Shown here: piece by piece, positions 13,198 to 47,964 of the stretch
Layout: every line of letters starts with the position of its first letter
How positions within the stretch are numbered: the first letter of the stretch is position 1
Source of the DNA: Promethearchaeota archaeon
Lineage (GTDB): Archaea > Asgardarchaeota > Lokiarchaeia > Sigyniarchaeales > SOKP01
Assembly (NCBI GenBank): GCA_019058365.1
Contig: JAHPZE010000002.1
Location: forward strand, 96,001 to 160,000
Length of the DNA: 64,000 nt
Direction of reading: 5' to 3'
Made by a program: the position numbers and the translations under genes
The notes under the pieces: generated by a model
Told to the model about the DNA's origin: nothing
The model's input: only the letters and a program-made list of their open reading frames with translations
Databases searched by the model: none

Positions 13198-15705
13198 TTA
13201 CATATTATGCGATTCTCGTGCAATAATTTCGTTTTGCAATTCACGTCCTATAGCAGTGAAATATGCATTATAACCTGTAACTCTGACTAAAAGATTCTTA
13301 TAATTTTCAGGATGCTTTTGAGCGTCTCGCAACATTTCAGCATCAAGCATATTGATTTGTAGAGAAGTTCCTCCATTTTCTATATAACCTCGTAAATAAG
13401 CTTTAAATTTCTCTTTGTGTTCTGGAGCTTTAATAATAGATGGATTAAATGTAATTGTATGACTAGCGCCATTTGGTAAGTAATTAATATATTCTCCTGA
13501 TTCGTTTTTACCACCTATAGCTTTTCCAACTGAATTAGTAACAGCTGTTGGGCCTTTTACATCAACTCCATTAGTAGGACAAATTGCGTTTGATAGGAAA
13601 GTTCCTTTATATCTACCGTTTGGTGTCGCTATGGTATTTCCTGCATCAGCACCAGCCCAATAATTCCATGAAAGCATTCCTGGACGATATTGATAATCAG
13701 TTAGAGTTTTATATTTCCAACATTCTTCTGTCCATGTTTCCATAATCGTCCTAGCAAGTTCATCAGCATCATCCATATCATTACCATATTTAGGAGCTTT
13801 ATTTTTTAAGTAAGTGTGCATAATTTCATAATCCTTACCTTCATAATTATTTTGTAAAGCGTCTTTAATTTGTGAAATTGCATATTTTTTATCTTCATAA
13901 ACAAGTTTTTTAATTGATAATAATGAATCAACTGTTGTGGCAAATCCAACGCCTTCAATAGTTACAAATCGTAACTCAGGGCCTCCATTTCTAATATCTA
14001 GACCCTTTTCTATACACCCTCGAACAATACTAGATAAATATGGAGTAGGAAGAAATTTTCCCCGAAGTTCTTCACACATATCATTTAAATCTACGGCGTA
14101 TTTAATAATAAATTGGATTTGTTTTTTCCATGCACTCCAAAATTCTTCCCAATTATTGAAATTCTCGGGATCTCCTGTTTCTGGTCCAATTTGTTCATCG
14201 GCTTTAGTTACAATCTCATTTCCTGGCATGTTTTTACCATTCCACAATGTTAATTCAATACTTTTTGTTAGGTTAGGATTACAATTAACAGTGCTTGATC
14301 GATCATTTCCCTGCATAGTATTCTCCAAACACCCTACTACTCCATAATCCCAAGCCTCATGTTTCGGGATTCCTTCCCTTATCATTCCGGCAATACTTCT
14401 TTCATCAAAATTTAATAAAAAAGGAGAACCTTGAGCTCTAGCAATCATATCAATAATTTTGTTTAATAATTTTTCAGAGGAATTTCTATGCAATCTAACG
14501 TTTGGTTTCGGTTCCAAGATTGGATACCACTCATCTATTACTTCCAGAAAGGTATAAGTTAATTCATTTGTTAAATCCTCTCCATTTTGTCCACATCCAG
14601 ATAATGTAATTATTTGACCAAATCCTGATGTAATACCTTGTTTTCCAGCATTTATCATCGCATCATATGCAGTATTACAATGGAACCAAAAACTCCCTAA
14701 TATCTCTTTTACGAAGTTTTTGGCAATAGTTTTATCATTAAGTACATCCTTTTTATATAAGGACCATAAATATTGATCTATTCGACCAAAAGAAAGCCCC
14801 GGTCCAGGATAAGATTCTTCCGCCATTACAAGCATATGAGTAAGCCATACAGCTTGAATTCCTTGCCAGAAAGTTTCTGAGGGTTCCCATGGGACATGCT
14901 CCAAATTTTTAGCCATTTCTTCAAGCTCTTCTCCACGTTCATAAGTTGGAACTTTATTTTTTAATCTTCTACATTCTTCAGCATATTTTTTTGCCAATTT
15001 CCTCGGAATTTCTGCTGTCATCATGATTGCTCTAAGTTCTTGTCCTTTTGGTCCTAATTTTTCTTCTTCACTAAATTTGGAATAACTGTCTTTTGCTTTC
15101 TTATAAATATATTTAAATCCCTTTTTAACAACTGTCTCATAGTCAGGAATTATATGTCCCCCGATTGCCCCGAGATTTCCAAATCCAGATTTATGAAATT
15201 GAAAGATAGCCTCTCTATTTCTAATATTTTTTTTCCAATATTCCTTTGCTTCATCTTGATTAAAACACTTACTCAATTGAGTATTAAATCTAGAACCGGC
15301 TAATAAACTTGGACCTACTATTTCCTGGGGAATATAATTTAACATTACTTCTTCAAGAAATTTTATTCTGCGTTCTGGTAAAGATAACTTCCAAAAATTA
15401 TCTGGTAATTTAACATCTGAAGCCATTGATCTAAAAGAAGAAGCTAAAACTCCTTTGTCGTTTTTTCCTAATACCTGTATATAACTATAGATTTCTGGGA
15501 CGATATAGTAATCACCTTCGTAAAGAATTATATCCCAATCAGTTCCAGTTGTAAATGGCATGAATTGATTATTCCATTCTCGATCTAAACCCTTAAAATA
15601 ATAGTCTCTAAGCCATTTAGAGCGAGGAGAAAGATCATGAGGTTCTGCAATAGGAAATTTTGGTACTTGTTCTTGGTAAACATTATTCTCATTGATTTTA
15701 CTCAT
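13198..15705 (-). CDS. Glycyl-radical enzyme, non-PFL type, substrate unknown
   Basis: C-terminal LLVRVTGYNAYF Gly loop; single-Cys GCLE finger loop; FGRIDQYL. Confidence 0.9.
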   Translation of the reverse strand: MSKINENNVYQEQVPKFPIAEPHDLSPRSKWLRDYYFKGLDREWNNQFMPFTTGTDWDIILYEGDYYIVPEIYSYIQVLGKNDKGVLASSFRSMASDVKLPDNFWKLSLPERRIKFLEEVMLNYIPQEIVGPSLLAGSRFNTQLSKCFNQDEAKEYWKKNIRNREAIFQFHKSGFGNLGAIGGHIIPDYETVVKKGFKYIYKKAKDSYSKFSEEEKLGPKGQELRAIMMTAEIPRKLAKKYAEECRRLKNKVPTYERGEELEEMAKNLEHVPWEPSETFWQGIQAVWLTHMLVMAEESYPGPGLSFGRIDQYLWSLYKKDVLNDKTIAKNFVKEILGSFWFHCNTAYDAMINAGKQGITSGFGQIITLSGCGQNGEDLTNELTYTFLEVIDEWYPILEPKPNVRLHRNSSEKLLNKIIDMIARAQGSPFLLNFDERSIAGMIREGIPKHEAWDYGVVGCLENTMQGNDRSSTVNCNPNLTKSIELTLWNGKNMPGNEIVTKADEQIGPETGDPENFNNWEEFWSAWKKQIQFIIKYAVDLNDMCEELRGKFLPTPYLSSIVRGCIEKGLDIRNGGPELRFVTIEGVGFATTVDSLLSIKKLVYEDKKYAISQIKDALQNNYEGKDYEIMHTYLKNKAPKYGNDMDDADELARTIMETWTEECWKYKTLTDYQYRPGMLSWNYWAGADAGNTIATPNGRYKGTFLSNAICPTNGVDVKGPTAVTNSVGKAIGGKNESGEYINYLPNGASHTITFNPSIIKAPEHKEKFKAYLRGYIENGGTSLQINMLDAEMLRDAQKHPENYKNLLVRVTGYNAYFTAIGRELQNEIIARESHNM

Positions 15706-28731: not shown

Positions 28732-29916
28732 CTATCCTTTCTTTAGTAAGCCCTTATAAATGACTATATAATTTTTTATACTAATAATTTTAGGATTTTT
28801 CCTATAATTTGACGGAATAGGAGCATTACATCTAGAACAAAGACGAGAGCTTCTAAGCCAATCTTTGAATTCATCTGCATGAGCGGGATATCTACAATTT
28901 GGACATAAAATTATTCCTCTACCATTATCCTTAGGACTTTCAGGCAATCTAAAACAAAATATACATTTAAAATCGTCTATTGATAAATTGGCTGCCTTTG
29001 GTCTGTATAACTTAAAATTTATATGCTTTATGGTACTTTCAGTACTTCTAATTGGTCGACCTGTTTTACTACTACTTATTGTCCTAGTAGTTGTTTTGAC
29101 TCTAGAACTTCTTGATTGTATATTTGCATTAGGTGTTGATCTTGATGAATGAGATACTGATCTTGAAGTACGAGACACTGTTCTAGTTGAGGGTGTCGGA
29201 GTTGATCGCATTGGGCTGCGACTACTTTCAGTGCGTCGATTAGGAGACAATAAATCATTTAATCTACTTGTGCGGCTTGCTATATAGTCTCTAGTTAATC
29301 GGGGTAATTGGTGTCGAGCTCCAAAAAATCCATAAATAATTATTATTAATATACTTCCAATTAGCAATAATAAAAGATTTAGATCAATTAAAAAATGAAT
29401 AGGTATTAATAAAGATTCATAGAAATCAATAAGTGAATAGAAACTTATCCAATAAACAATTATGAAAAATAAAATTGAAAATCCTAAAATATACCCAAAC
29501 TTCCGGGCATTTACTGATTTTATGCCAAAATAAATTACATTATATTTTCGAAAACAACGATATAAAGATATTGAACCATATAATACATAAGGAAATCCAA
29601 ATAAAATACTCCACCAACTTAAATATAAATCTGAGCTTATAAGAAGATTTTCTCCTAATAAACCAGTAAAATTTCCCCAGATTGAATAAAATATACCAAT
29701 AAAAACAGGACCAACAGTAAAAAATGCAGTATTGTGAGGACTTCGATATTCACGATATTGTTTAATATTTTTTAAAACTTTGAAAGAAAAAATTAACCAT
29801 ATTCCTATTAATAGCCAACTCACAAGTACATTAAAAGAATTTAGAATTGCACCATGTATTATGCCTATCAATGAAAATATCGCCAATGTTATTGCGACAG
29901 CTTTAAATTTAGGCAT
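28732..29916 (-). CDS. Multipass membrane protein with Ser/Thr/Arg-rich linker and C-terminal RING-like zinc finger (putative E3 ligase)
   Basis: About 6 TMs in residues 1-200; C-x2-C-x16-C-x2-C-x4-H-x2-E-x3-W-x6-C-x2-C; last gene of the Ubl-E1-E2-JAMM run. Confidence 0.75.
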   Translation of the reverse strand: MPKFKAVAITLAIFSLIGIIHGAILNSFNVLVSWLLIGIWLIFSFKVLKNIKQYREYRSPHNTAFFTVGPVFIGIFYSIWGNFTGLLGENLLISSDLYLSWWSILFGFPYVLYGSISLYRCFRKYNVIYFGIKSVNARKFGYILGFSILFFIIVYWISFYSLIDFYESLLIPIHFLIDLNLLLLLIGSILIIIIYGFFGARHQLPRLTRDYIASRTSRLNDLLSPNRRTESSRSPMRSTPTPSTRTVSRTSRSVSHSSRSTPNANIQSRSSRVKTTTRTISSSKTGRPIRSTESTIKHINFKLYRPKAANLSIDDFKCIFCFRLPESPKDNGRGIILCPNCRYPAHADEFKDWLRSSRLCSRCNAPIPSNYRKNPKIISIKNYIVIYKGLLKKG

Positions 29917-29944
29917 AATTTAATAATCACCAAATTTCTTATGT

Positions 29945-30775
29945 TTAATCTTCATCATATTCGAGGTATAATGCTTTCCCTTCAATTATAGGATTCATGA
30001 ATTTTAAAATTTCTGGAAGCATCTTAATATCTAATGATCCCTTAATTCCATATACTAAAGGATACCATGTTTTAGTTCTAAGATTTGCCGTATATATTTC
30101 AAATCCTGTGGATTTTCCATCAATTTGGTATGGATCAATAACAAGAGCAACGGACTTATCCCACAATTTTTGATATCTCGCTTGAGTGCCCATATCTTCT
30201 GCGCTTAAAAAACATCCGTAGCTCGGGTGTGAATGGTACCACCCACAGATAAATAATTTTTGTTTTTTTATATCTTGGTATGCTCTAGCATAGTTTTTAT
30301 AGTCTTTAATTTCAGCATAGACAGCTGTACCATGCCCCATTGGATAAGCATCCTCGATCTGTAAGAGACCATTATCTTTTTCTATTTTTCCTGCTAAAAG
30401 ACCTATAACTTCCACCCATTTTTCTCTTGGAATCTTAGAATTCGCATATTTAAGTGCATGACTCGCTATTTTAAGAATCGTCTTTACTGAAATATAAATT
30501 TCCTTATTGATTTTCTCTTCATCTTGAATATCAAACTCTTTTTTTTCCACAATTTCTGCTGTAGGTATCTTTGTAAGTTTTATAATAGGTTTATTAGAAG
30601 ATTTTTGTGTAAGAATTGAAGAAATTTCTTCTGTTAATTCGTCTTCTTCTAATGCAAGTTCTTCACAGATTTCATCTAGTAGTTCTTGTTTTATTTTTTC
30701 TTTTATCTTCCTCTTAATTGTATCTTTGATTGATTTTTTACCTGATTCTTTAGTGTCCATAAATGAAATCACCAT
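29945..30775 (-). CDS. JAMM/MPN+ metalloprotease (Rpn11/CSN5-like deconjugase)
   Basis: EVIGLL...GWYHSHPSYGCFLSAED (E-xn-HxH-x7-S-x2-D intact), ALVIDP; start overlaps the E2 stop. Confidence 0.92.
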   Translation of the reverse strand: MVISFMDTKESGKKSIKDTIKRKIKEKIKQELLDEICEELALEEDELTEEISSILTQKSSNKPIIKLTKIPTAEIVEKKEFDIQDEEKINKEIYISVKTILKIASHALKYANSKIPREKWVEVIGLLAGKIEKDNGLLQIEDAYPMGHGTAVYAEIKDYKNYARAYQDIKKQKLFICGWYHSHPSYGCFLSAEDMGTQARYQKLWDKSVALVIDPYQIDGKSTGFEIYTANLRTKTWYPLVYGIKGSLDIKMLPEILKFMNPIIEGKALYLEYDED

Positions 30776-31296
30776 TTTTTGTTTGCATACTTCTTAACAA
30801 GATTTTTTACTTTTTTCTCGAAAAATTTTGGATTTTTCATCATTTCGACTGCTGCTTTTTTATTGAAAACATCAGTAGGATTTACATATTTTCCACGTGT
30901 ATTTAACATAGCAATTATAGCTTGAACAACCGTAACCGCTGTTTTTGAAGGACTCCACCCCCCTTTTTTACCTAATAACGATGGATCTACTAAAGCTAGA
31001 CAAATATTTCTTTGGCCCTTATATTCAGATGGTTTTGGCCAAAAATTTGGATGCCAAATTGGAGTATGAAATCTAACAAAAGGAGGTTGGTTAGGATATT
31101 GAGCTGGGAATCTCAATTCTAATCTAAAAAGACCACCTGCATAAGCAGTCCCTTTGGGTCCTTTAAATGAAATTGCTAAATGATCAATACTCTTCTTTTT
31201 AGGATTAAATGGTATTAATTGAACAATACTCCCCTCTTTCAGCATTTTTTTTAATCCCGCATAATCTTGGGAAATACGACTACTTCTTATACTCAT
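30769..31296 (-). CDS. Ubiquitin-conjugating enzyme E2 (UBC fold)
   Basis: GPKGTAYAGGLF, FP..YP..PP.V.F.T.IWHPN, catalytic NICL, WSPS. Confidence 0.95.
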   Translation of the reverse strand: MSIRSSRISQDYAGLKKMLKEGSIVQLIPFNPKKKSIDHLAISFKGPKGTAYAGGLFRLELRFPAQYPNQPPFVRFHTPIWHPNFWPKPSEYKGQRNICLALVDPSLLGKKGGWSPSKTAVTVVQAIIAMLNTRGKYVNPTDVFNKKAAVEMMKNPKFFEKKVKNLVKKYANKKW

Positions 31297-31371
31297 TTTC
31301 TCAACCCTTTTTATTATCTTTAATTTTATATTGAAATTTTTTCTTTAAATAATTGTTTTTTTCTTAAAATA

Positions 31372-32637
31372 TTAATTTAAAACCGTTTTTTGATTCAAAT
31401 TTTGTTTTATTTTTAAGGTTACAAAAATTTCTCCACCTTTAAACCCTACAGCTGTCATAAGTTCGCAATTTCTTAAACCATTTTCAATTGGATTCTTTTC
31501 TAAATCAACTATCATAATATCATTGAAATCCAGTAAAGTTAGAATTGGTTCAGAATCTGGATCTAATTTAAATCCGTTTTTCTCCAATATTTTAATTATA
31601 TTTATACAAGGTGATTGAGATCTCAATTTTATAGATACCCGGCGAACGTCTTTACCACATTGAGAACATTCTGGATTTCTTTTTTTTTCAATATGGTAAA
31701 ATTTCATTGTAATTGCATTATAGATCACATAATTTCTAATAGGTTCACCTAATCCTTTATGTCCTTTTTTCCAATGAAGAATTTTGGTGGTTTCATGTGA
31801 TTGTAATGCAGAAATAACCGCATTTATAGTTATTATTCCAGGATCGTGTCTATCAATGATTTTCACAATATCATCCTTAGTATATTCAGGAAAGAAATTA
31901 TACTTGGTCACTAGTTCATTTGCAACCTTTTGAATGAATTTAATATCATTTATATTTTTTGGATTTGGATCTCTATCAAACTTTTCTCTAAATGCCATAT
32001 CTCCTTTAAAAACACAATGGATCCTTTTTCGAGGGATTCCAACCACAGTACAAGCAGCCATTTCATCAGTTTCTCCTACGGGTAATGGATTGCATTCATA
32101 ACAAGCATTTTTATAGGGGAAAACTGTATATACATGACCATGATAACCTGATACTCCTCCATCTACTAATGGCTTTCTAAATCTTATACACTGTGCATTT
32201 AAATTTAGGCGTGCATTCATCGAATCAAGACCACCAATAACAACATCCGCAGCTTGGTATAGTGCTGGATTCAAACGTTCTAGAGAAGTATGGTATCCCT
32301 TAACAATAATATTAGGATTAATTTCTTTTAACTTTCGAGCTGCAACAACTGCCTTAGGTTCTCCAATCTTCGCTCCCGTAAAAAGAACTTGACGGTTTAA
32401 GTTAGAATGTTCAATAATGTCTAAATCAATAAGATCAAGGTGACCAACACCGAGCATAGCTAAGTTTTTAGCGATTTCACAACCTAAACCTCCAACCCCA
32501 ACTATAAGAACTCTTGAATTCTTTACCACTTTCTGGGACCATCCCTCCAAACGAAATTGGCGGTCATAAAGGTCTCTCTCTTCCACTGATAATTCTTTTG
32601 CGAAAAAATCTGTATCCTTATCCACTATTATCACCAT
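31372..32637 (-). CDS. Ubiquitin-like activating enzyme E1 (ThiF adenylation domain, catalytic-Cys insert, probable C-terminal UFD)
   Basis: YDRQ, GVGGLG, SNLNRQ, CYEC and CSQC Zn pair, AACTVVGIPRKRIHC matching the Uba2/Uba3-type CT...P..HC motif. Confidence 0.93.
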   Translation of the reverse strand: MVIIVDKDTDFFAKELSVEERDLYDRQFRLEGWSQKVVKNSRVLIVGVGGLGCEIAKNLAMLGVGHLDLIDLDIIEHSNLNRQVLFTGAKIGEPKAVVAARKLKEINPNIIVKGYHTSLERLNPALYQAADVVIGGLDSMNARLNLNAQCIRFRKPLVDGGVSGYHGHVYTVFPYKNACYECNPLPVGETDEMAACTVVGIPRKRIHCVFKGDMAFREKFDRDPNPKNINDIKFIQKVANELVTKYNFFPEYTKDDIVKIIDRHDPGIITINAVISALQSHETTKILHWKKGHKGLGEPIRNYVIYNAITMKFYHIEKKRNPECSQCGKDVRRVSIKLRSQSPCINIIKILEKNGFKLDPDSEPILTLLDFNDIMIVDLEKNPIENGLRNCELMTAVGFKGGEIFVTLKIKQNLNQKTVLN

Positions 32638-32716
32638 TAATTTTTACAAAAAAAATAAAAAAAATTGAAGGGCTAAATGCCCTTATATTATATTTTATGA
32701 AGAAAGTTTTATAAGT

Positions 32717-33049
32717 CTACCCAGCCGTACTGGCGGGGATTAATAGAATATCATCACCATCATTTAAATCATAGTCGCTTAGGGAACTATTTTCATCCAT
32801 AGTAACTCCTCCACTAGAAATATGGAAATCATTAGGATCAAGACCATATAAATTTCCTAATGTTTGTTTAATGTCTCTTACTGGATTACTGTCATTTACC
32901 GTTAACTTCTCTTTTTTTTCGCCAGGACCAATTGTTGACATAAAATATAAAGTCAATTTCTTTCCTGCAGAAGGAATTTTACTTGCAGGAGTTTTAGATT
33001 TTACAGGTTCATTTACACCTAAATCTTCATCAAATTCATCAAAACTCAT
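32717..33049 (-). CDS. Ubiquitin-like modifier 1 (beta-grasp; N-terminal extension; ends STAG)
   Basis: V.DIK...L...G..MDE..SLSDY.L.DGD.I.L ubiquitin pattern; first gene of the E1-E2-JAMM run. Confidence 0.85.
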   Translation of the reverse strand: MSFDEFDEDLGVNEPVKSKTPASKIPSAGKKLTLYFMSTIGPGEKKEKLTVNDSNPVRDIKQTLGNLYGLDPNDFHISSGGVTMDENSSLSDYDLNDGDDILLIPASTAG

Positions 33050-33318
33050 TCATTTCACTTCTCTTTTTTTTTTAATTTCTAATTTTTATTATACTTAATA
33101 AAATGGCGTTAAAAAGATATTATAAAACCCTTTGGAATGATTTTGAAGTATTCAAGATCCTCTCCAAAAATAAAAAGGTGAAAATTAGAATTCTTAAGAA
33201 ATTATATTATAAATTGTATGAAACCTTATCAATATATATATGAATTAAAAAAAGTTGTTTTAGAGAGAATATATAATTATAAAAACCAGATAAATCGACG
33301 GAATAAAAGTAAAGGCTT

Positions 33319-33990
33319 ATGAATCCTCTGGATGATGCAGAATCTGTTGTTCTTGAATTAGTAAGGGAGTATTTAACAAAGAAAACCTTCTTTTCAATTA
33401 GAGAAATTACCTCCTATATTAGCAATAGAGTACGATACAATCCAAATATAAATGAGAATAGAATAGAGTTAGTTTTGAAGAATTTAATTAAGCGGCGTGT
33501 TATTATCCCTGGAACAAAATTAATGAAAAATAATATTATAGAACATCCTAAAAGAAATGAAATCTTCAATTTTATTAAAAAAAATCCGTCAAATATTAAT
33601 GAAATAATGAAGGGTCTAAAAATTGGCAGTAATCAAGCTTTATGGCATTTATCATGTTTAGAAAAATTTCAATTTGTTAGATCAAAACAAATCAATAATC
33701 ATAGAATGTTCTTCAAATTTGATTCAAATCCAAAGCTTGACCCATTTTACTATTATTTAAAAAAAAATATCGTTCAAGATATAATAGAATTTATGAAAGT
33801 AGAAAATAAAGCATTAAAAATCACAGAGATAGCAAATGGTTTGAAAAAGAATCATAGTACTATTAAAAAATACATAGATATTTTAATAGATTTAAAATTA
33901 ATAAAAATTGAAAAAGAAACAAATAGGAATATATTCAAATTAGATCTTAGAAAATATTCTAATGTAAGAAAATCAATTCAAGGTGAATGA
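33319..33990 (+). CDS. Tandem winged helix-turn-helix transcriptional regulator
   Basis: RNEIFNFIKKNP...WHL..LE and ITEIA..L....STI..YI..L wHTH units; divergent from the Ubl operon. Confidence 0.8.
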   Translation: MNPLDDAESVVLELVREYLTKKTFFSIREITSYISNRVRYNPNINENRIELVLKNLIKRRVIIPGTKLMKNNIIEHPKRNEIFNFIKKNPSNINEIMKGLKIGSNQALWHLSCLEKFQFVRSKQINNHRMFFKFDSNPKLDPFYYYLKKNIVQDIIEFMKVENKALKITEIANGLKKNHSTIKKYIDILIDLKLIKIEKETNRNIFKLDLRKYSNVRKSIQGE

Positions 33991-34074
33991 GATTAAAAAC
34001 TCCAATTTTATTCCAATCCCCTTTAAATTTTAAATTAAATATTATAAATTCAGAAAATAATCTAATTAAAAATC

Positions 34075-34875
34075 ATGAGAAAAAATTATAGAATTTTAAG
34101 TATTTTCACTCTTTATATAGTGTGTATTTTGTTTTATGTCTTTTTTTTCCTATATCGCATAGAAAATACACCATTATTTCTTGTTCTTACTATTGGTAGT
34201 GTTGCTGTTTTATCCACTAGTACAATTTATACAGTTTCAGTTTTACAGTCAAAAAGTAGTCCTGTCAAGACGATAAAAGAAAAAAAATATATCACAAAAC
34301 CAAAGTCAATTCAAAAGAAAACTTTCCCTATTATTGAAGATTATATTGATGCTCTACCTTCAATAGAAGACTATGTTGAATCAAATGAGTCCTATAAAGA
34401 TATGCCAATTATTGATAAATATATTTTTTCGATCTTAAGTCAGGAAGAATTAAATAAAATTGACTTGTTAGAGTTATCAAAAATGGACAAGATATTGTTT
34501 ATTAGAGAAATGATTTACTATGATCCAAATGAGAGAAAAGAATTAATCGAAAATATGTTAGAAAACAGAGATAATATTAATGGTGTAATACCTTATACAC
34601 CACCTAAAAGTTCTATAGGAATGGAAGATCAAATTCGTGTATATATACGATCACTTTTAGAACCTGGCGAGAAAACGAAAATTATAATAATAGATACAGC
34701 TGAATCAGCAAGAGTAGTTAAAGATAGAGTTGCACTATTATTTGATTATGAACAACAAGATTTTCTCTTATCTTCCGGAGGGATATTATTAGATGAGAAC
34801 TCACAGATAAAAGACTATAGTATTGATGATGATGATGAAATTGCTTTAATTCCCTCACGAAAAAAGAAAAATTAA
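34075..34875 (+). CDS. Membrane-anchored protein with C-terminal ubiquitin-like domain (no terminal Gly)
   Basis: Two N-terminal TMs; C-terminal PGEK.K...DF.LSSGG..LDENS.I.DY.I.D.D.I.LIP is clearly paralogous to Ubl1/Ubl2; ends PSRKKKN. Confidence 0.8.
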   Translation: MRKNYRILSIFTLYIVCILFYVFFFLYRIENTPLFLVLTIGSVAVLSTSTIYTVSVLQSKSSPVKTIKEKKYITKPKSIQKKTFPIIEDYIDALPSIEDYVESNESYKDMPIIDKYIFSILSQEELNKIDLLELSKMDKILFIREMIYYDPNERKELIENMLENRDNINGVIPYTPPKSSIGMEDQIRVYIRSLLEPGEKTKIIIIDTAESARVVKDRVALLFDYEQQDFLLSSGGILLDENSQIKDYSIDDDDEIALIPSRKKKN

Positions 34876-34922
34876 AAGTTAGGGCAGCTAATTTTAAATC
34901 CCTTTACTTATACCAGGAAGAT

Positions 34923-35348
34923 TTAGCCAGCAATACTAGCTGGAATTAAAAGTATATCCTCTCCATCAGAAATAGTATAATCGCTTAAAGGATTAATTTC
35001 ATCCATTGTTACACCACCACAAGATAAATGAAAGTCAGCAGGATCTAAACCAAATAAATTTGCAACGGTTTCTTTAATATCACCGACAAGATTTCCATCA
35101 TTAACAGTTAATTTTTGTTTTTTCTCACCCGGACCAATAGTAGACATAAAATATATTGAAATCTTCTTCCCTCCAGAAATAATTTTGGTAGTAGGAGTTT
35201 TTGTTTCAACTTCTTCTTCAAGACTCTTCTCAAAAGGTTCTTTTACATCTTCTTCTTTATTTTCTTCAAGATCTTCATCTAATTCTTCTAAATCTTCATC
35301 AAATTCTTGTTCATCAAATTCATCGTCAAATTCATTATCAAAACCCAT
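34923..35348 (-). CDS. Ubiquitin-like modifier 2 (acidic N-terminal tail; ends SIAG)
   Basis: Core matches Ubl1 at about 60 of 82 residues by manual alignment. Confidence 0.85.
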   Translation of the reverse strand: MGFDNEFDDEFDEQEFDEDLEELDEDLEENKEEDVKEPFEKSLEEEVETKTPTTKIISGGKKISIYFMSTIGPGEKKQKLTVNDGNLVGDIKETVANLFGLDPADFHLSCGGVTMDEINPLSDYTISDGEDILLIPASIAG

Positions 35349-35541
35349 AAAATAAACCCCAATAATTATGTTTTAAATATAAATTATACAATTTTTTTGC
35401 TATGAATCTATGAAAATAATAGAAATTAAGTTATATAAATAGAATCTACAAAATTTTAATATTAAAATCTTGATTAGCAAACACTTTAGAGTCAATATTC
35501 ATATGAATTTATTAATAGAGTATGTTAAAAATTGAACCATT

Positions 35542-36699
35542 ATGAACGACGAACCAATTCCAAAGTATCAAATTCGAGAAAAAACACCAATTGAAAAATT
35601 TGATATGATTTCTGATAAAAAATTGCTTAAAAAATTAAAAAAAGAAAGGATCAAGTTAGATAAAGAAAAGAATGAATGGGAAAAAGTTATTAACCAAATT
35701 GAAAATTACAAAGAAAATGTTGAAGATCTTGAGAAAAAAAGAAAAGAAAAAGAACTTAAAATTAAATATCTCCTTGAACAACGAGATAACTTACAGGATG
35801 AGTTAGAACGAACGAAAAATCAAATAAAACAACAGAATAGTGATTTAGCAACAAAAGATCAACAATTTAGAGAAAAAATCAGAAATAAAAATGAGGAATT
35901 GGATCAAAAAAATGCTGAATTAGAAAGATTTCAAGAAAAGTTAGATAATTTGAGAGAGGATATTGGAAATCAAAAAAAGAATCTAGAATGGGAAAAACAA
36001 AGAACAGAAAAACGAATAAAGGAAATTAAAACAAAAATTCCAGGTATGGAGAGAAGAGAAAATGCTTTAGAAAGAACTATTAATGATTTAGAGTCTAAAT
36101 TAATGGATTTAAGAAATGAAATCAAAGATTTAACTAAAGATCGAGATAATTTAAATAATGAAATTAATACTTTAAGGAGAGAAATTAATGATGAAAAAAA
36201 TCGAATTTCTGACGAAAAGAAAAAATTAAAAGAAGAAAGAGAAAAAACTCGTTACAAAAAACAAGATATTTCTCTACAATCTCGTGAAATTGATAAGAAA
36301 AAAACAGATCTGAAAAAATATAGAGATAAAGTTGAAAGTGATGTAAATAATTTGGAAAAAAGAAGACGCCAACAAGAAGCAAGATTAAAAGAATTAGAGA
36401 GAAAAGTTCCTGCTGCAGAAAACAAATATAACTCCTTAAATAGGAAAATTCCTAATTTAGAAGAAAAATTTAGAAGACTAAATAATGAATACAGACAATT
36501 AGAAAAACAAAAAGAGACCTTGGAAAGTGATAAAAATATAATTAAACGTGAAAGAGAAAAATTAGAAAAAGATAAACAACGATTTCTAAATGAAAAAAGG
36601 GCATTTGAAAGAGAAATAAGAAAGATAACAACGAAATCTCCATCAATTAAAACGAAAACACCCTCAAAAATTAATACTAAGACTCCTTCAAAATATTAA
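35542..36699 (+). CDS. Long coiled-coil protein with C-terminal TK(S/T)PS repeats
   Basis: About 330 aa of continuous charged heptad pattern, no enzyme motifs; ends TTKSPSI-KTKTPSKI-NTKTPSKY. Confidence 0.75.
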   Translation: MNDEPIPKYQIREKTPIEKFDMISDKKLLKKLKKERIKLDKEKNEWEKVINQIENYKENVEDLEKKRKEKELKIKYLLEQRDNLQDELERTKNQIKQQNSDLATKDQQFREKIRNKNEELDQKNAELERFQEKLDNLREDIGNQKKNLEWEKQRTEKRIKEIKTKIPGMERRENALERTINDLESKLMDLRNEIKDLTKDRDNLNNEINTLRREINDEKNRISDEKKKLKEEREKTRYKKQDISLQSREIDKKKTDLKKYRDKVESDVNNLEKRRRQQEARLKELERKVPAAENKYNSLNRKIPNLEEKFRRLNNEYRQLEKQKETLESDKNIIKREREKLEKDKQRFLNEKRAFEREIRKITTKSPSIKTKTPSKINTKTPSKY

Positions 36700-44997: not shown

Positions 44998-47964
44998 ATG
45001 ATGAATGAATTAGAAATTGATAAAGAGCTTGAAAATTTCAAAGATCAGTTAAATTTACTGGCAATGATATTTGATACTCGCAGAAAAATGCGTAGAGAGA
45101 TATATAATGAAAAAACCGGTTTCATTTTTAACGCCAAGTATCAATTTACAACTAAAGATGATGCATTTAATGTTCACGTGATTTTTAAAGATGGAAAGAT
45201 GACTGTGGCAGATGGAAAAATTGATGATCCTAATATCACTATTTATTATAAGGATAAAGAGACTTTGGCAAATCTCTATAGCAAGAGTGCTGAAGAATCA
45301 CTTGATTATCTTTTAACAAACGAGATGGGATATATTGGAAACATGTCTTACCTTACCAAGTTTTCTTATCTCACATCGCTCGTTATGGGAGCTAAGATCA
45401 AGGATTATAAAGGTCCTGAAAACCGAATATTATATCCAATTGAGAATATTGATAATGGAGAAAAGAGTAGAAGGCTTAAGAATGAAGGTTTGAATCGAAA
45501 GGTTGATAAAGTTGAGGTATTAGAAGATCCTTATCTAGCAAAATATTCTTTGGAGGATTTTCCACGTTTAAAATATTTAAAAAACCGTCGTTTTGCCTTA
45601 AAACCGGCAATATGCGTTGAAAGGGCTAGATTAGTAACACAATATCATAGGGAAAATGGGTTCGAGGAAGATAGTTCTGGAAATCCACTAGATCCAGAAT
45701 TACGACAAGCAGGAGCAGTAAATTACATAATGTCTAATAAAAGACCTATAATTCATGATAGACATCTAATTGCTGGGTCTACTACATCAAAAGAAGTTGG
45801 GATCCCTATGTATCCTGAACTTATTGCGACAGCTATTTGGCCTGAACTAAAAACAATTGGTGAACGGGAGCTAAATCCTAATGATATTTCCGACAAAGAT
45901 GCAGATATTTTAAGTTTAGAAGTTTTTCCTTATTGGATGGAACGGAATGTGCGAGAATACTGTCGTACAAAATTCAATAATCCCAAATCTCAAGCATTAG
46001 AAGAAGGATGGGTATTTTATTTTATGATGAAAACCAATGCTATCAGCCATACAATCCCGGGTTTTCCAATGGTTATAAACAAAGGATTAGAAAGTGTAAA
46101 ACATAAAGCTGAAAAATTAGAAAAAGAAGCTGATTCAAAAGAGAAAAAAAATTTCTATAAGGCAATTCAAATAGCAATAGATGGTGTTTTAACATATTCT
46201 AAAAATCTGAGTGAAGAAGCAATAAGAATTGCTGAATCTTTGGATCCAAATGAACCAGAACAAGCAAAAAGAATTGATGAATTAAAGGAGATTTCCAGAA
46301 TTTGTGCGAAAGTACCAGGAAAACCAGCAGAAACGCTTCAAGAAGCAATTCAATCTATTTGGACGAGTTTTGTTTGCTTACATTGTGAAAATGCTAATTC
46401 TGCATTATCAATTGGTAGATTAGATCAAATACTCCAGCCATTCTTTTTAAAAGAGATTGTGAAGGCTAAAAATGACGATGAAAAAGAACAAATAATAAGA
46501 AAGGCAATTGAGTTAGTCGGATCCTTGTTTGTTAGAATTAATGATCATGATCCACTAATGCCAAATGTGGGGTGGAAACTTTTCGGAGGCAGTTCTTCAG
46601 ATGATACAGTGACAGTCGGAGGTGTTGATAGAGAAGGAAATAACGCTGTGAATGATATGAGCTATATTATTTTAAAGACAAATGAGATGCTTGGTTTCCA
46701 AGATCCTAATATGAATGCTCGATATTATTCTGGAATTAATTCAAAGGAATATTTACGTCGTTTGACTGAAGTAAATGTGAACATGGGGGCATCTCCAAGC
46801 ATTCATAATGATAGAACTATGATTGAAGCCTTAGTTCACGAAGGTTTTGTTATAGAAGATGCTAGAGACTGGGGTGCAACTGGATGTGTTGAGCCTACAA
46901 TTGTAGGAAAACATTATGGTCATACAAATTGCATGCTTTTGAATCTGGTGGCTCCCTTAGAAATGGCATTAAATAACGGAATTATTCCATTGACCGGAGA
47001 AAAAATGGGGATTGAAACTGGTTATGTTCGGACTAATTTTATAACATTTGAAGATTTTTTAGATGCCTATAAAATTCAACTTAAATATTTAGCAGAACAA
47101 TCAATTGAAATTAATAATTTTCTCGGGGAATCACATAGAGATATACATCCAACACCTCTTTTATCGTGTTTTTACGATGGTCCTTTAGAAAAAGGTAAGG
47201 ATCTCATTAATGGCGGTGCTGTTTATAATACATCGGGAGTTGCTCTTGTGGCACTTACGGATGTGATTGATAGTTTATTGGTTATTAAGGATTTAATCTA
47301 CAATAAAAGTGAATTTAATTTTGCTACACTAATGGATGCTATTGATAATAACTTTGAAGGTTACGAATCCATCTTGCATAAAATAGAACAAGTTCCCAAG
47401 TTTGGTTCAGGTGAAGATGGTACCATTGAAATGGCTCAAGATATAATTAATTTTTGTTATGATATCTACAATTCTGCTAGAAATTATAGGGGTGGTAAAT
47501 ATCTAGTGGGTTACTGGTCGATAAGTTATCATACTGGATTTGGAATGCTCACTGGAGCTTTACCCTCAGGTCGAAAGAAAGGAAAGGCATTGACTCCCGG
47601 ATTAACTCCCGCATCTGGTACCACTGATATCTTACTTCCAAGCATTCAAAGTGTTGCAGCTTTAGACTACTTAAAAATGGCAAATAATGCTTCTTATAAT
47701 GTGAAACTTGTTCCCCATCCGGGTGATAACCATAAAGAAACACTAGATCTTTTCACGAGCTATGTCCAGAGCTTTTTTGATCTAAATGGAATGCAATGGC
47801 AATTTAATGTTATATCTTCGGATACAATGAGAGATGCGATGGCTAATCCGATTGATTATAGATGGCTCCTAGTTAGAGTCTCAGGATATAATGCCTACTT
47901 CACAAAACTAAATAAAAATATGCAATTAGAATTAATTGAAAGGCATGAATATCATACAAGATAG
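44998..47964 (+). CDS. Glycyl-radical enzyme with N-terminal SCP2-like domain, non-PFL type
   Basis: ICVERA, GRLDQ, GCVEP, LLVRVSGYNAYF; residues about 30-130 follow the SCP2 pattern (F.DGKM.V.DG....P.ITI...G.M..L.KF). Confidence 0.9.
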   Translation: MMNELEIDKELENFKDQLNLLAMIFDTRRKMRREIYNEKTGFIFNAKYQFTTKDDAFNVHVIFKDGKMTVADGKIDDPNITIYYKDKETLANLYSKSAEESLDYLLTNEMGYIGNMSYLTKFSYLTSLVMGAKIKDYKGPENRILYPIENIDNGEKSRRLKNEGLNRKVDKVEVLEDPYLAKYSLEDFPRLKYLKNRRFALKPAICVERARLVTQYHRENGFEEDSSGNPLDPELRQAGAVNYIMSNKRPIIHDRHLIAGSTTSKEVGIPMYPELIATAIWPELKTIGERELNPNDISDKDADILSLEVFPYWMERNVREYCRTKFNNPKSQALEEGWVFYFMMKTNAISHTIPGFPMVINKGLESVKHKAEKLEKEADSKEKKNFYKAIQIAIDGVLTYSKNLSEEAIRIAESLDPNEPEQAKRIDELKEISRICAKVPGKPAETLQEAIQSIWTSFVCLHCENANSALSIGRLDQILQPFFLKEIVKAKNDDEKEQIIRKAIELVGSLFVRINDHDPLMPNVGWKLFGGSSSDDTVTVGGVDREGNNAVNDMSYIILKTNEMLGFQDPNMNARYYSGINSKEYLRRLTEVNVNMGASPSIHNDRTMIEALVHEGFVIEDARDWGATGCVEPTIVGKHYGHTNCMLLNLVAPLEMALNNGIIPLTGEKMGIETGYVRTNFITFEDFLDAYKIQLKYLAEQSIEINNFLGESHRDIHPTPLLSCFYDGPLEKGKDLINGGAVYNTSGVALVALTDVIDSLLVIKDLIYNKSEFNFATLMDAIDNNFEGYESILHKIEQVPKFGSGEDGTIEMAQDIINFCYDIYNSARNYRGGKYLVGYWSISYHTGFGMLTGALPSGRKKGKALTPGLTPASGTTDILLPSIQSVAALDYLKMANNASYNVKLVPHPGDNHKETLDLFTSYVQSFFDLNGMQWQFNVISSDTMRDAMANPIDYRWLLVRVSGYNAYFTKLNKNMQLELIERHEYHTR

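Follow-up and report, generated by a model that had tools for sequence, protein, structure and literature searches.

We analysed a 64,000-nucleotide stretch of DNA (the window: positions 96,001 to 160,000 of contig JAHPZE010000002.1, assembly GCA_019058365.1) from a Promethearchaeota archaeon, in which five co-oriented minus-strand genes encode a ubiquitin-like (Ubl) protein ending in Ala-Gly (AG), designated Ubl1, an E1, an E2, a JAMM metalloprotease and a multipass transmembrane RING protein (TM-RING). These genes probably constitute a dedicated Ubl conjugation pathway that has long existed among Asgard archaea and stands apart from the Gly-Gly ubiquitin found in this cell. An original prediction based on the DNA of the window had proposed such a parallel, second Ubl pathway; it is supported here by the conservation of the gene order in relatives, the co-variation of Ubl and TM-RING across genomes, and the position of E1 and E2 outside the clades of the Gly-Gly operons. 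The source genome is 4.7 Mb in size, and the proteins of the window group with Promethearchaeota/Lokiarchaeia sequences. All nine open reading frames (ORFs) of the original prediction, comprising the five core genes and four flanking genes, were found at the positions given there, and the core genes follow one another with the predicted spacing of 79, 75, −7 and 28 nt in the order Ubl1, E1, E2, JAMM, TM-RING (Table 1).

Conservation of the core operon across Asgard archaea

Comparison with related genomes showed that the order Ubl-E1-E2-JAMM-TM-RING is kept in 20 loci of the genus and in 12 loci of other Lokiarchaeia families, including Ca. Lokiarchaeum ossiferum. The same order recurs in further genera of the source family, in Hodarchaeales and in other classes. 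Its retention at 40-60% identity across classes bears out the expected synteny and indicates that the arrangement is not due to chance. One family splits the core into Ubl-E1 and E2-JAMM-TM-RING blocks; the TM-RING gene always lies behind E2-JAMM, split operon included, and Ubl directly precedes E1 in every intact locus examined. Within the genus the loci occupy a fixed position amid housekeeping genes, with E1 identities of 80-97% and mostly a single copy.

Among 400 Asgard genomes, the Ubl family was detected in 194, and is thus not the private family that had been supposed, while TM-RING was detected in 189. Both were present in 179 genomes, only Ubl in 15, only TM-RING in 10 and neither in 196, the discordant genomes being mostly fragmented assemblies; these counts describe a pattern and carry no statistical test, since related genomes are not independent. 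Where one of Ubl and TM-RING is gained or lost, so is the other. Entire families without either still have E2s, and two single-contig genomes (G044 and G050) without Ubl, E1 or full TM-RING keep another E1 and one E2.

A modifier ending in Ala-Gly

Ubl1 comprises an acidic N-terminal extension followed by a ubiquitin-type β-grasp domain, and is mature as encoded in the source genome. Its structural model (pLDDT, the predicted local distance difference test, of 90) superposes on ISG15 and ubiquitin with Z-scores of 13-14 and a root mean square deviation (rmsd) of 1.2-2.4 over 74-79 residues. The profile aligns with ubiquitin through Val70, placing the tail PASTAG in register with ubiquitin residues 71-76. 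Ala-Gly occupies ubiquitin positions 75-76 in 280 of 280 distinct family members, followed at once by a stop in 194 and by an unconserved tail of 1-7 residues in 86, as in L. ossiferum, whose Ubl ends in AG-I. A C-terminal di-glycine is absent from the family, and both soluble Ubls of the locus end in AG, confirming the non-canonical ending of the proposed modifier. An invariant Ala-Gly followed by a direct stop or a variable tail is the mark of a processed modifier that is activated at its Gly and conjugated. We consider it highly probable that the AG-Ubl is conjugated by the E1 and E2 of the operon.

UFM1, whose tail looks alike by eye, was considered as an identity for the modifier and rejected. 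PF03671 gave no match at the Ubl genes of 61 genomes down to an E-value of 0.5, and the 50 best fold matches did not include UFM1; the profile matches point to ubiquitin, with PF00240 passing the cut-off.

Further AG-Ubls are encoded apart from the core. A third copy, 92% identical to Ubl1, lies alone on contig C16 (L002:7118-7450), away from enzyme genes, and similar orphan copies occur in relatives. In one family, a HerA/DUF87-type ATPase with a C-terminally fused AG-Ubl (ending in ASTAG or SSRAG; L238:1910-3718, L234:11072-12814) is encoded 1-3 kb upstream of the operon, and may be a conjugatable ATPase or an adaptor that mimics the tag.

E1, E2 and JAMM enzymes

The catalytic motifs of all three enzymes are complete, as had been claimed. 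E1 carries GxGGLG (47-52), SNLNRQ (78-83), D138/R143 and zinc-binding CxxC pairs at 179/182 and 324/327, with the catalytic C196 lying within an AACT...RIHC segment of the UBA2/UBA3 type. Among solved structures it comes closest to UBA2, UBA1 and UBA3 (E 1e-38 to 1e-34), with UBA2 first and UBA3 near. The C-terminal region shows weak matches to ubiquitin-fold families (UBX, YukD, UBL_UBAC1 and UN_NPL4; best E 0.0013-0.1) and is a probable ubiquitin-fold domain. E2 contains HPN (82-84) and C99, with one loop insertion on either side of the Cys and HPN-type UBCs as relatives, and is orthologous to Lokiarch_29330 and to L. ossiferum NEF87_002994. The JAMM motif (E122, H181, H183, S191, D194; HxHx7Sx2D) is complete and conserved, and the protease is predicted to trim precursor tails and to remove the tag.

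Phylogenetic analysis placed the AG-linked E1s in one clade (SH-aLRT 100), apart from the Gly-Gly operon E1s and from UBA1/2/3, and the AG-linked E2s likewise in one clade (support 99/96), apart from the Gly-Gly operon E2s. Both enzymes thus lie outside the clades of the Gly-Gly operons, in agreement with the parallel pathway originally envisaged. The two trees are congruent, with the same deep split in both; the E1 tree, unrooted and obtained by a quick search, does not allow any eukaryotic descendant to be named. Net charge also sets the two systems apart: across loci, the AG-Ubl ranges from −6 to −20, with the exception of one locus, and its E2 from +9 to +28, compared with −3 to +1 for the ubiquitins of Gly-Gly systems and −6 to +5 for their E2s. 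The acidic AG-Ubl and basic E2 are probably charge-matched, which would help to separate the pathway from the Gly-Gly one.

Other E1 genes were noted in the genomes compared. One Lokiarchaeia family encodes E1s of ~800-980 aa (L054:8489-10786, L055:1613-4555), which are of UBA1-like length and whose C-terminal half holds the active E1 domain. An E1-E2-JAMM cluster in genome G058 (L056:3899-6094, contig C23) contains an E1 that is nearest to eukaryotic UBA1/2/3 in the quick unrooted tree.

The membrane RING protein

The TM-RING model consists of six helices within residues 2-197, a disordered Ser/Arg linker and a folded C-terminal domain, the RING, at residues ~300-394. Loops 2 and 4 and the C-tail contain 5-7 Lys/Arg each and loops 1, 3 and 5 contain none, a positive-inside pattern that places the RING in the cytoplasm in the predicted topology. 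The C-terminal domain matches RING/U-box domains by profile and by fold (best RING fold match: Z 7.7, rmsd 4.2 over 74 residues), and such domains fill its match lists. Six predicted helices and a RING-fold domain agree with the polytopic membrane E3 candidate of the original prediction. The ligand pattern is C2-C2-H-x2-E-W-C2, with seven instead of eight Cys/His ligands and a previously missed Glu349 at zinc ligand 6. Among 32 homologues at 18-77% identity, the seven ligands and Trp353 do not vary and Ile319 hardly does; Ile319 and Trp353 are E2-contact residues.

Complex prediction for E2 and the RING gave a score of 0.60, compared with 0.20 for the best control, with runs sharing at least 94% of contacts and a partner pLDDT of at least 90. 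Of the 80 solved pairs 58 reached the mark, as did 2 of the 110 mismatched ones; the pairs that passed with 0.60 or less comprise 7 solved pairs and both mismatches. The prediction lends weak support to the interaction, and its score may be explained by likeness to solved E2-RING complexes. Overall, TM-RING is likely the E3 of the AG-Ubl pathway.

For the membrane domain no clear relative of solved structure emerged: considered also for homology to Hrd1, Doa10 or Derlin, it gave only generic helical fold matches (Z 8 or less); Foldseek gave no match at E 0.001 and the Atlas no usable match, from which neither novelty nor absence follows. Sources that name TM-RING at all call it a "hypothetical protein", a label that may have let it escape notice. 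In several Heimdallarchaeia loci it is adjoined by a RING-less paralogue of its membrane domain, a six-helix protein of ~190 aa (HHalign probability 96%, E 4.8e-9; Table 1), which suggests a defined membrane complex; the two may form a heteromer. In genome G038 (L039:5490-6916), TM-RING is encoded in two ORFs of 338 and 137 aa, reflecting a frameshift or an assembly error. A short RING-like remnant with a stop (E 2.4e-11; G044:C1:594201-594329) is present in one of the two single-contig genomes otherwise without the operon, and is perhaps a decayed copy.

A Gly-Gly system in the same cell

The source genome also encodes a Gly-Gly ubiquitin, an orthologue of Lokiarch_37670, which stands alone on contig C12 with no E1 beside it. 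A second E1 (527 aa, with a long insertion) and a second E2 lie within 1.4 kb on contig C45 (L001:4404-7859), this E2 having similar loop insertions and adjoining the gene for a 2127-aa MIT/TPR protein. The C45 E1 and E2 are likely the enzymes for the C12 ubiquitin. The original prediction had named a Gly-Gly ubiquitin encoded elsewhere, and used by the operon enzymes, as an outcome that would speak against it; such a ubiquitin does exist, but it has candidate enzymes of its own. Genomes of Hodarchaeales and Helarchaeia likewise hold the AG operon together with clusters of Gly-Gly ubiquitin, E1, E2 and small soluble RING.

Tandem soluble proteins with C4HC3 RINGs, and a coiled-coil RING protein, are encoded on contigs C16 and C15 (L295:2-1977, L294:1441-3165) and are further E3 candidates. 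Seven ThiS/MoaD genes and a MoeB-like E1 occur elsewhere in the genome.

Accessory genes and surroundings of the core

The four flanking genes had been counted as part of an 8-kb unit. They join the core only in some genera of the source family, and the coiled-coil gene was not found beside the core in loci of other families. Ubl2 ends in AG, matches Ubl1 at 69% and has a longer acidic N-terminus. TM-Ubl terminates in a basic, Gly-free tail and so would not be conjugatable; given its restriction to some genera, the "membrane UBL adaptor" once assigned to the system is an accessory and not a core part.

Table 1 Features of the AG-Ubl locus (positions within the window) and the RING-less paralogue (positions within Heimdallarchaeia loci).
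Feature	Position	Strand	Evidence
Ubl1, core modifier, 110 aa	32717..33049	-	PF00240 E 8.8e-6, model, tail register
Terminator-like hairpin and T-run between Ubl1 and E1	32668..32684	-	sequence scan, relatives
E1, UBA2/UBA3-type single chain, 421 aa	31372..32637	-	ThiF 2.8e-61, motifs, tree
E2, 175 aa, HPN and Cys99	30769..31296	-	UQ_con 5.8e-26, tree
JAMM/MPN+ metalloprotease, 276 aa	29945..30775	-	JAB 8.3e-17, complete motif
TM-RING, candidate E3, 394 aa	28732..29916	-	model, profile and fold matches
Divergent winged-helix (wHTH) regulator, accessory	33319..33990	+	profile match, neighbourhood comparison
TM-Ubl, membrane-anchored Ubl domain, accessory	34075..34875	+	ubiquitin Pfam E 3.8e-3
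Ubl2, second AG-ending paralogue, accessory	34923..35348	-	ubiquitin Pfam E 1.2e-3
Coiled-coil protein, probable bystander	35542..36699	+	generic coiled-coil matches only
RING-less paralogue of the TM-RING membrane domain	L224:3615-4202, L225:11241-11834, L236:4318-4923, L237:3921-4466, L239:4598-5176		Heimdallarchaeia loci

A scan for hairpins followed by T-runs found 3 terminator-like sites, compared with 2.6 expected by chance. The hairpin between Ubl1 and E1 has a stem that is 89.6% paired across 16 relatives, with a single two-sided change, and T-runs are present in most Loki loci; judged by its sequence, it could hold the tag in excess over the enzymes. The promoter scan remained at chance level (54 vs 47). 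No Snf7 gene of the ESCRT (endosomal sorting complex required for transport) system was found in the window, as had been stated, the two of the genome being on contigs C46 and C2, and no Cdc48 or proteasome gene was seen among the ORFs scanned around the core.

The coiled-coil gene is co-oriented with the nucleotidyltransferase gene behind it, and the segment 36711-40797, with the nucleotidyltransferase, a PHP-like gene, a small zinc-finger ORF and FtsZ, is kept in the genus. Elsewhere in the window (13198-15705 and 44998-47964) are two glycyl-radical (pyruvate formate-lyase-like) enzymes, each with its own radical S-adenosylmethionine activase.

Comparison with known systems

The operon of Caldiarchaeum subterraneum, which encodes ubiquitin, E1, E2, a small RING protein and Rpn11, has been reconstituted (PMC5654768, PMC6043591). 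The AG operon shares its clustering of five functions, the UBA3-like single-chain E1, a JAMM that trims the pro-modifier and a RING-type E3 (both functions here predicted). It differs in its AG-ending tag with an acidic N-terminal extension, in its basic E2 with two insertions, and in its E3 candidate, which is not a small soluble RING-H2 but a membrane protein of six helices that has Glu at ligand 6. It would thus work like an archaeal ubiquitin operon while lacking two defining features, the di-Gly and the small soluble RING.

Among Asgard archaea, a Gly-Gly cascade of Helarchaeia has been reconstituted (10.1101/2023.07.25.550441), and the Loki ubiquitin tested in the Gly-Gly papers is Lokiarch_37670 (PMC9192718; 10.1101/2023.07.25.550441). 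Compared with the Asgard Gly-Gly ubiquitin-ESCRT clusters, the AG system occurs in the same phylum and often in the same genomes, but its E1 and E2 form separate clades and no ESCRT linkage is seen here. Orthologues of its E2 (Lokiarch_29330, HeimAB125_09840, HeimC2_08360 and HeimC3_05760) were aligned in the supplement of PMC9192718, so that the system, suggested to be possibly undescribed, was already catalogued as far as the E2 is concerned; no paper was found on the Ala-Gly tag or the membrane RING. Neither feature was found mentioned for Asgard archaea in the literature searched, subscription papers being outside its coverage, and a full-text search for Lokiarch locus tags returned nothing in main texts. 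The ubiquitin studies found for archaea, including Asgard, deal with a single Gly-Gly ubiquitin and RINGs that are small and soluble.

Hennell James et al. 2017 defined archaeal ubiquitin gene Clusters I-III, of which I and II are distinguished by the phylogeny of their E2s and contain the E1s of Lokiarchaeum GC14_75 and Heimdall, which have a UBL domain at the C-terminus (PMC5654768 supplement). From this cluster text, which makes no mention of an Ala-Gly tail or of a membrane RING (PMC5654768), the AG operon is probably their Cluster II. The E2 sequence of GC14_75 was not found among the loci examined, and its E1 is therefore not tied to accession KKK43157. Spang et al. 2015 reportedly mention an E1-E2-RPN11 cluster in Lokiarchaeum.

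Bacterial BilA has one conserved Gly and a variable tail cut by a JAMM, and leaves an Ala-Gly remnant on target lysines (10.1101/2023.09.26.559546), so the chemistry of an Ala-Gly tag is feasible. The AG operon resembles BilABCD in having a Ubl with a conserved Gly, preceded by Ala in the tested Bil member, a JAMM-cut tail, and E1-E2 conjugation to lysines (here presumed). Bil is antiviral and has no RING E3 among its four genes, whereas the AG operon has a membrane RING and stable vertical inheritance; searches with PADLOC 2023 and NCBIfam gave generic E1 and JAB matches only, in a housekeeping context.

Among eukaryotic systems, the predicted combination of a multipass membrane domain and a cytoplasmic RING is shared with Hrd1/gp78, Doa10/MARCH6 and RNF185, and a single-Gly modifier that would act at the membrane recalls UFM1. 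Unlike for Hrd1/gp78 as a whole, the RING alone matches, weakly and no better than soluble RINGs. The analogy drawn earlier with endoplasmic reticulum-associated degradation (ERAD) goes no further than a membrane protein with a RING, no specific link to ERAD having been found. Unlike UFM1, the Ubl is ubiquitin-like by profile and fold, and its enzymes are not of the UBA5/UFC1 type, E1 being closest to UBA2/1/3 and E2 to HPN-type UBCs and not to UFM1-pathway enzymes.

Discussion

In the proposed pathway, the Ubl would be made mature or its short tail cut by JAMM after the invariant Gly, a cleavage suggested by the tail pattern. E1 would adenylate the terminal Gly with ATP and form a thioester at Cys196, as its motifs and the chemistry of UBA2/UBA3 suggest, and the tag would then move to Cys99 of the basic E2. 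The cytoplasmic RING would bind E2~Ubl and promote transfer to lysines of membrane or membrane-proximal proteins, presumably with the membrane domain choosing the substrates, and JAMM would take the tag off again. The most likely outcome would be the marking of membrane proteins for turnover or regulation; that the substrates are membrane proteins bound for degradation we hold to be a little short of an even prospect.

Regulation could take another form, with the tag placed singly on one or a few partners, such as TM-RING itself or a membrane complex, as a switch of the SUMO/NEDD8 kind instead of a degradation signal. We regard this as tenable, if doubtful. The AG-Ubl has an acidic N-terminal extension and an acidic core, and carries Ala or Val, not Arg, at ubiquitin position 72, where NEDD8 carries Ala. 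UBA2 is the best match of the E1, with UBA3 close, and the RING-less paralogue adjoins TM-RING in Heimdallarchaeia. In the tree, however, the E1 groups with neither UBA2 nor UBA3, and there is no sign of a single target; such a switch differs from the proposed pathway in outcome only. The role of TM-RING is a further question, as its RING could be degenerate and the protein serve as membrane anchor, as sensor or as substrate, ligation being E3-free or carried out by soluble RINGs elsewhere. Several observations weigh against TM-RING as a working ligase: zinc ligand 6 is Glu (Ala in one homologue) compared with Cys in the soluble RINGs of the genome, which could leave the domain weakened or catalytically inactive; further genes for RING and JAMM proteins, among them the C4HC3 RINGs on C15 and C16, could partner E2; and the E2:RING score is weak support. 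The invariance of the seven ligands and Trp353, the near-invariance of Ile319, and the position of the gene behind E2-JAMM even in the split operon argue the other way and make a degenerate RING unlikely.

It is also conceivable that the operon enzymes serve as the ubiquitin machinery of the cell, charging its Gly-Gly ubiquitin, with the AG-Ubls as non-conjugated adaptors or decoys. Cross-use of this kind is allowed by the isolation of the C12 ubiquitin from any E1, and no Ala-specific change was visible in the E1 tail pocket, where the tail-binding motifs GLDS and DGG are the same in UBA3; both points count against a separate pathway. An invariant terminal Gly with random tails is nevertheless the pattern of a processed modifier, Ubl directly precedes E1 wherever the locus is intact, and in G044 and G050 another E1 and one E2 persist although Ubl, E1 and full TM-RING are missing, which renders this explanation very improbable. 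No more credible is an antiviral conjugation system like Bil or the Cap2 system of CBASS (cyclic oligonucleotide-based antiphage signalling system), or a sulfur-carrier pathway. An Ala-Gly end with JAMM trimming is found in BilA, and the distribution across the phylum is patchy; against this stand the fixed housekeeping position, high E1 identity and low copy number in the genus, the congruent E1 and E2 trees and the generic nature of the PADLOC matches. A sulfur carrier needs neither E2 nor RING, and the seven ThiS/MoaD genes and MoeB-like E1 lie elsewhere.

The dedicated AG-Ubl pathway would provide Asgard archaea with a second modifier served by an E1, an E2, a protease and an integral-membrane RING of its own, retained in lineages from Lokiarchaeia to Hodarchaeales. 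Proteomics based on di-Gly remnants would miss an Ala-Gly tag; trypsin would leave 49 residues of Ubl1 on a target, the last Lys of Ubl1 being residue 61. The pathway is directly testable, as the proteins are small and the cultured Ca. L. ossiferum has an intact operon (E2 = NEF87_002994). With the AG operon found beside a separate Gly-Gly system, parallel tagging pathways probably existed before eukaryotes. A more far-reaching and rather unlikely possibility, for which the presence of the system in Hodarchaeales is of interest, is an ancestral Asgard pathway with a modifier of its own, in which an integral RING ligase of six helices marks membrane proteins that are to be extracted and degraded, serving quality control as a forerunner of the eukaryotic membrane ligases, with parallel Ubl pathways already in place before eukaryotes. 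If the AG-Ubl system is active, parallel Ubl pathways and membrane ligation would both be older than eukaryotes.

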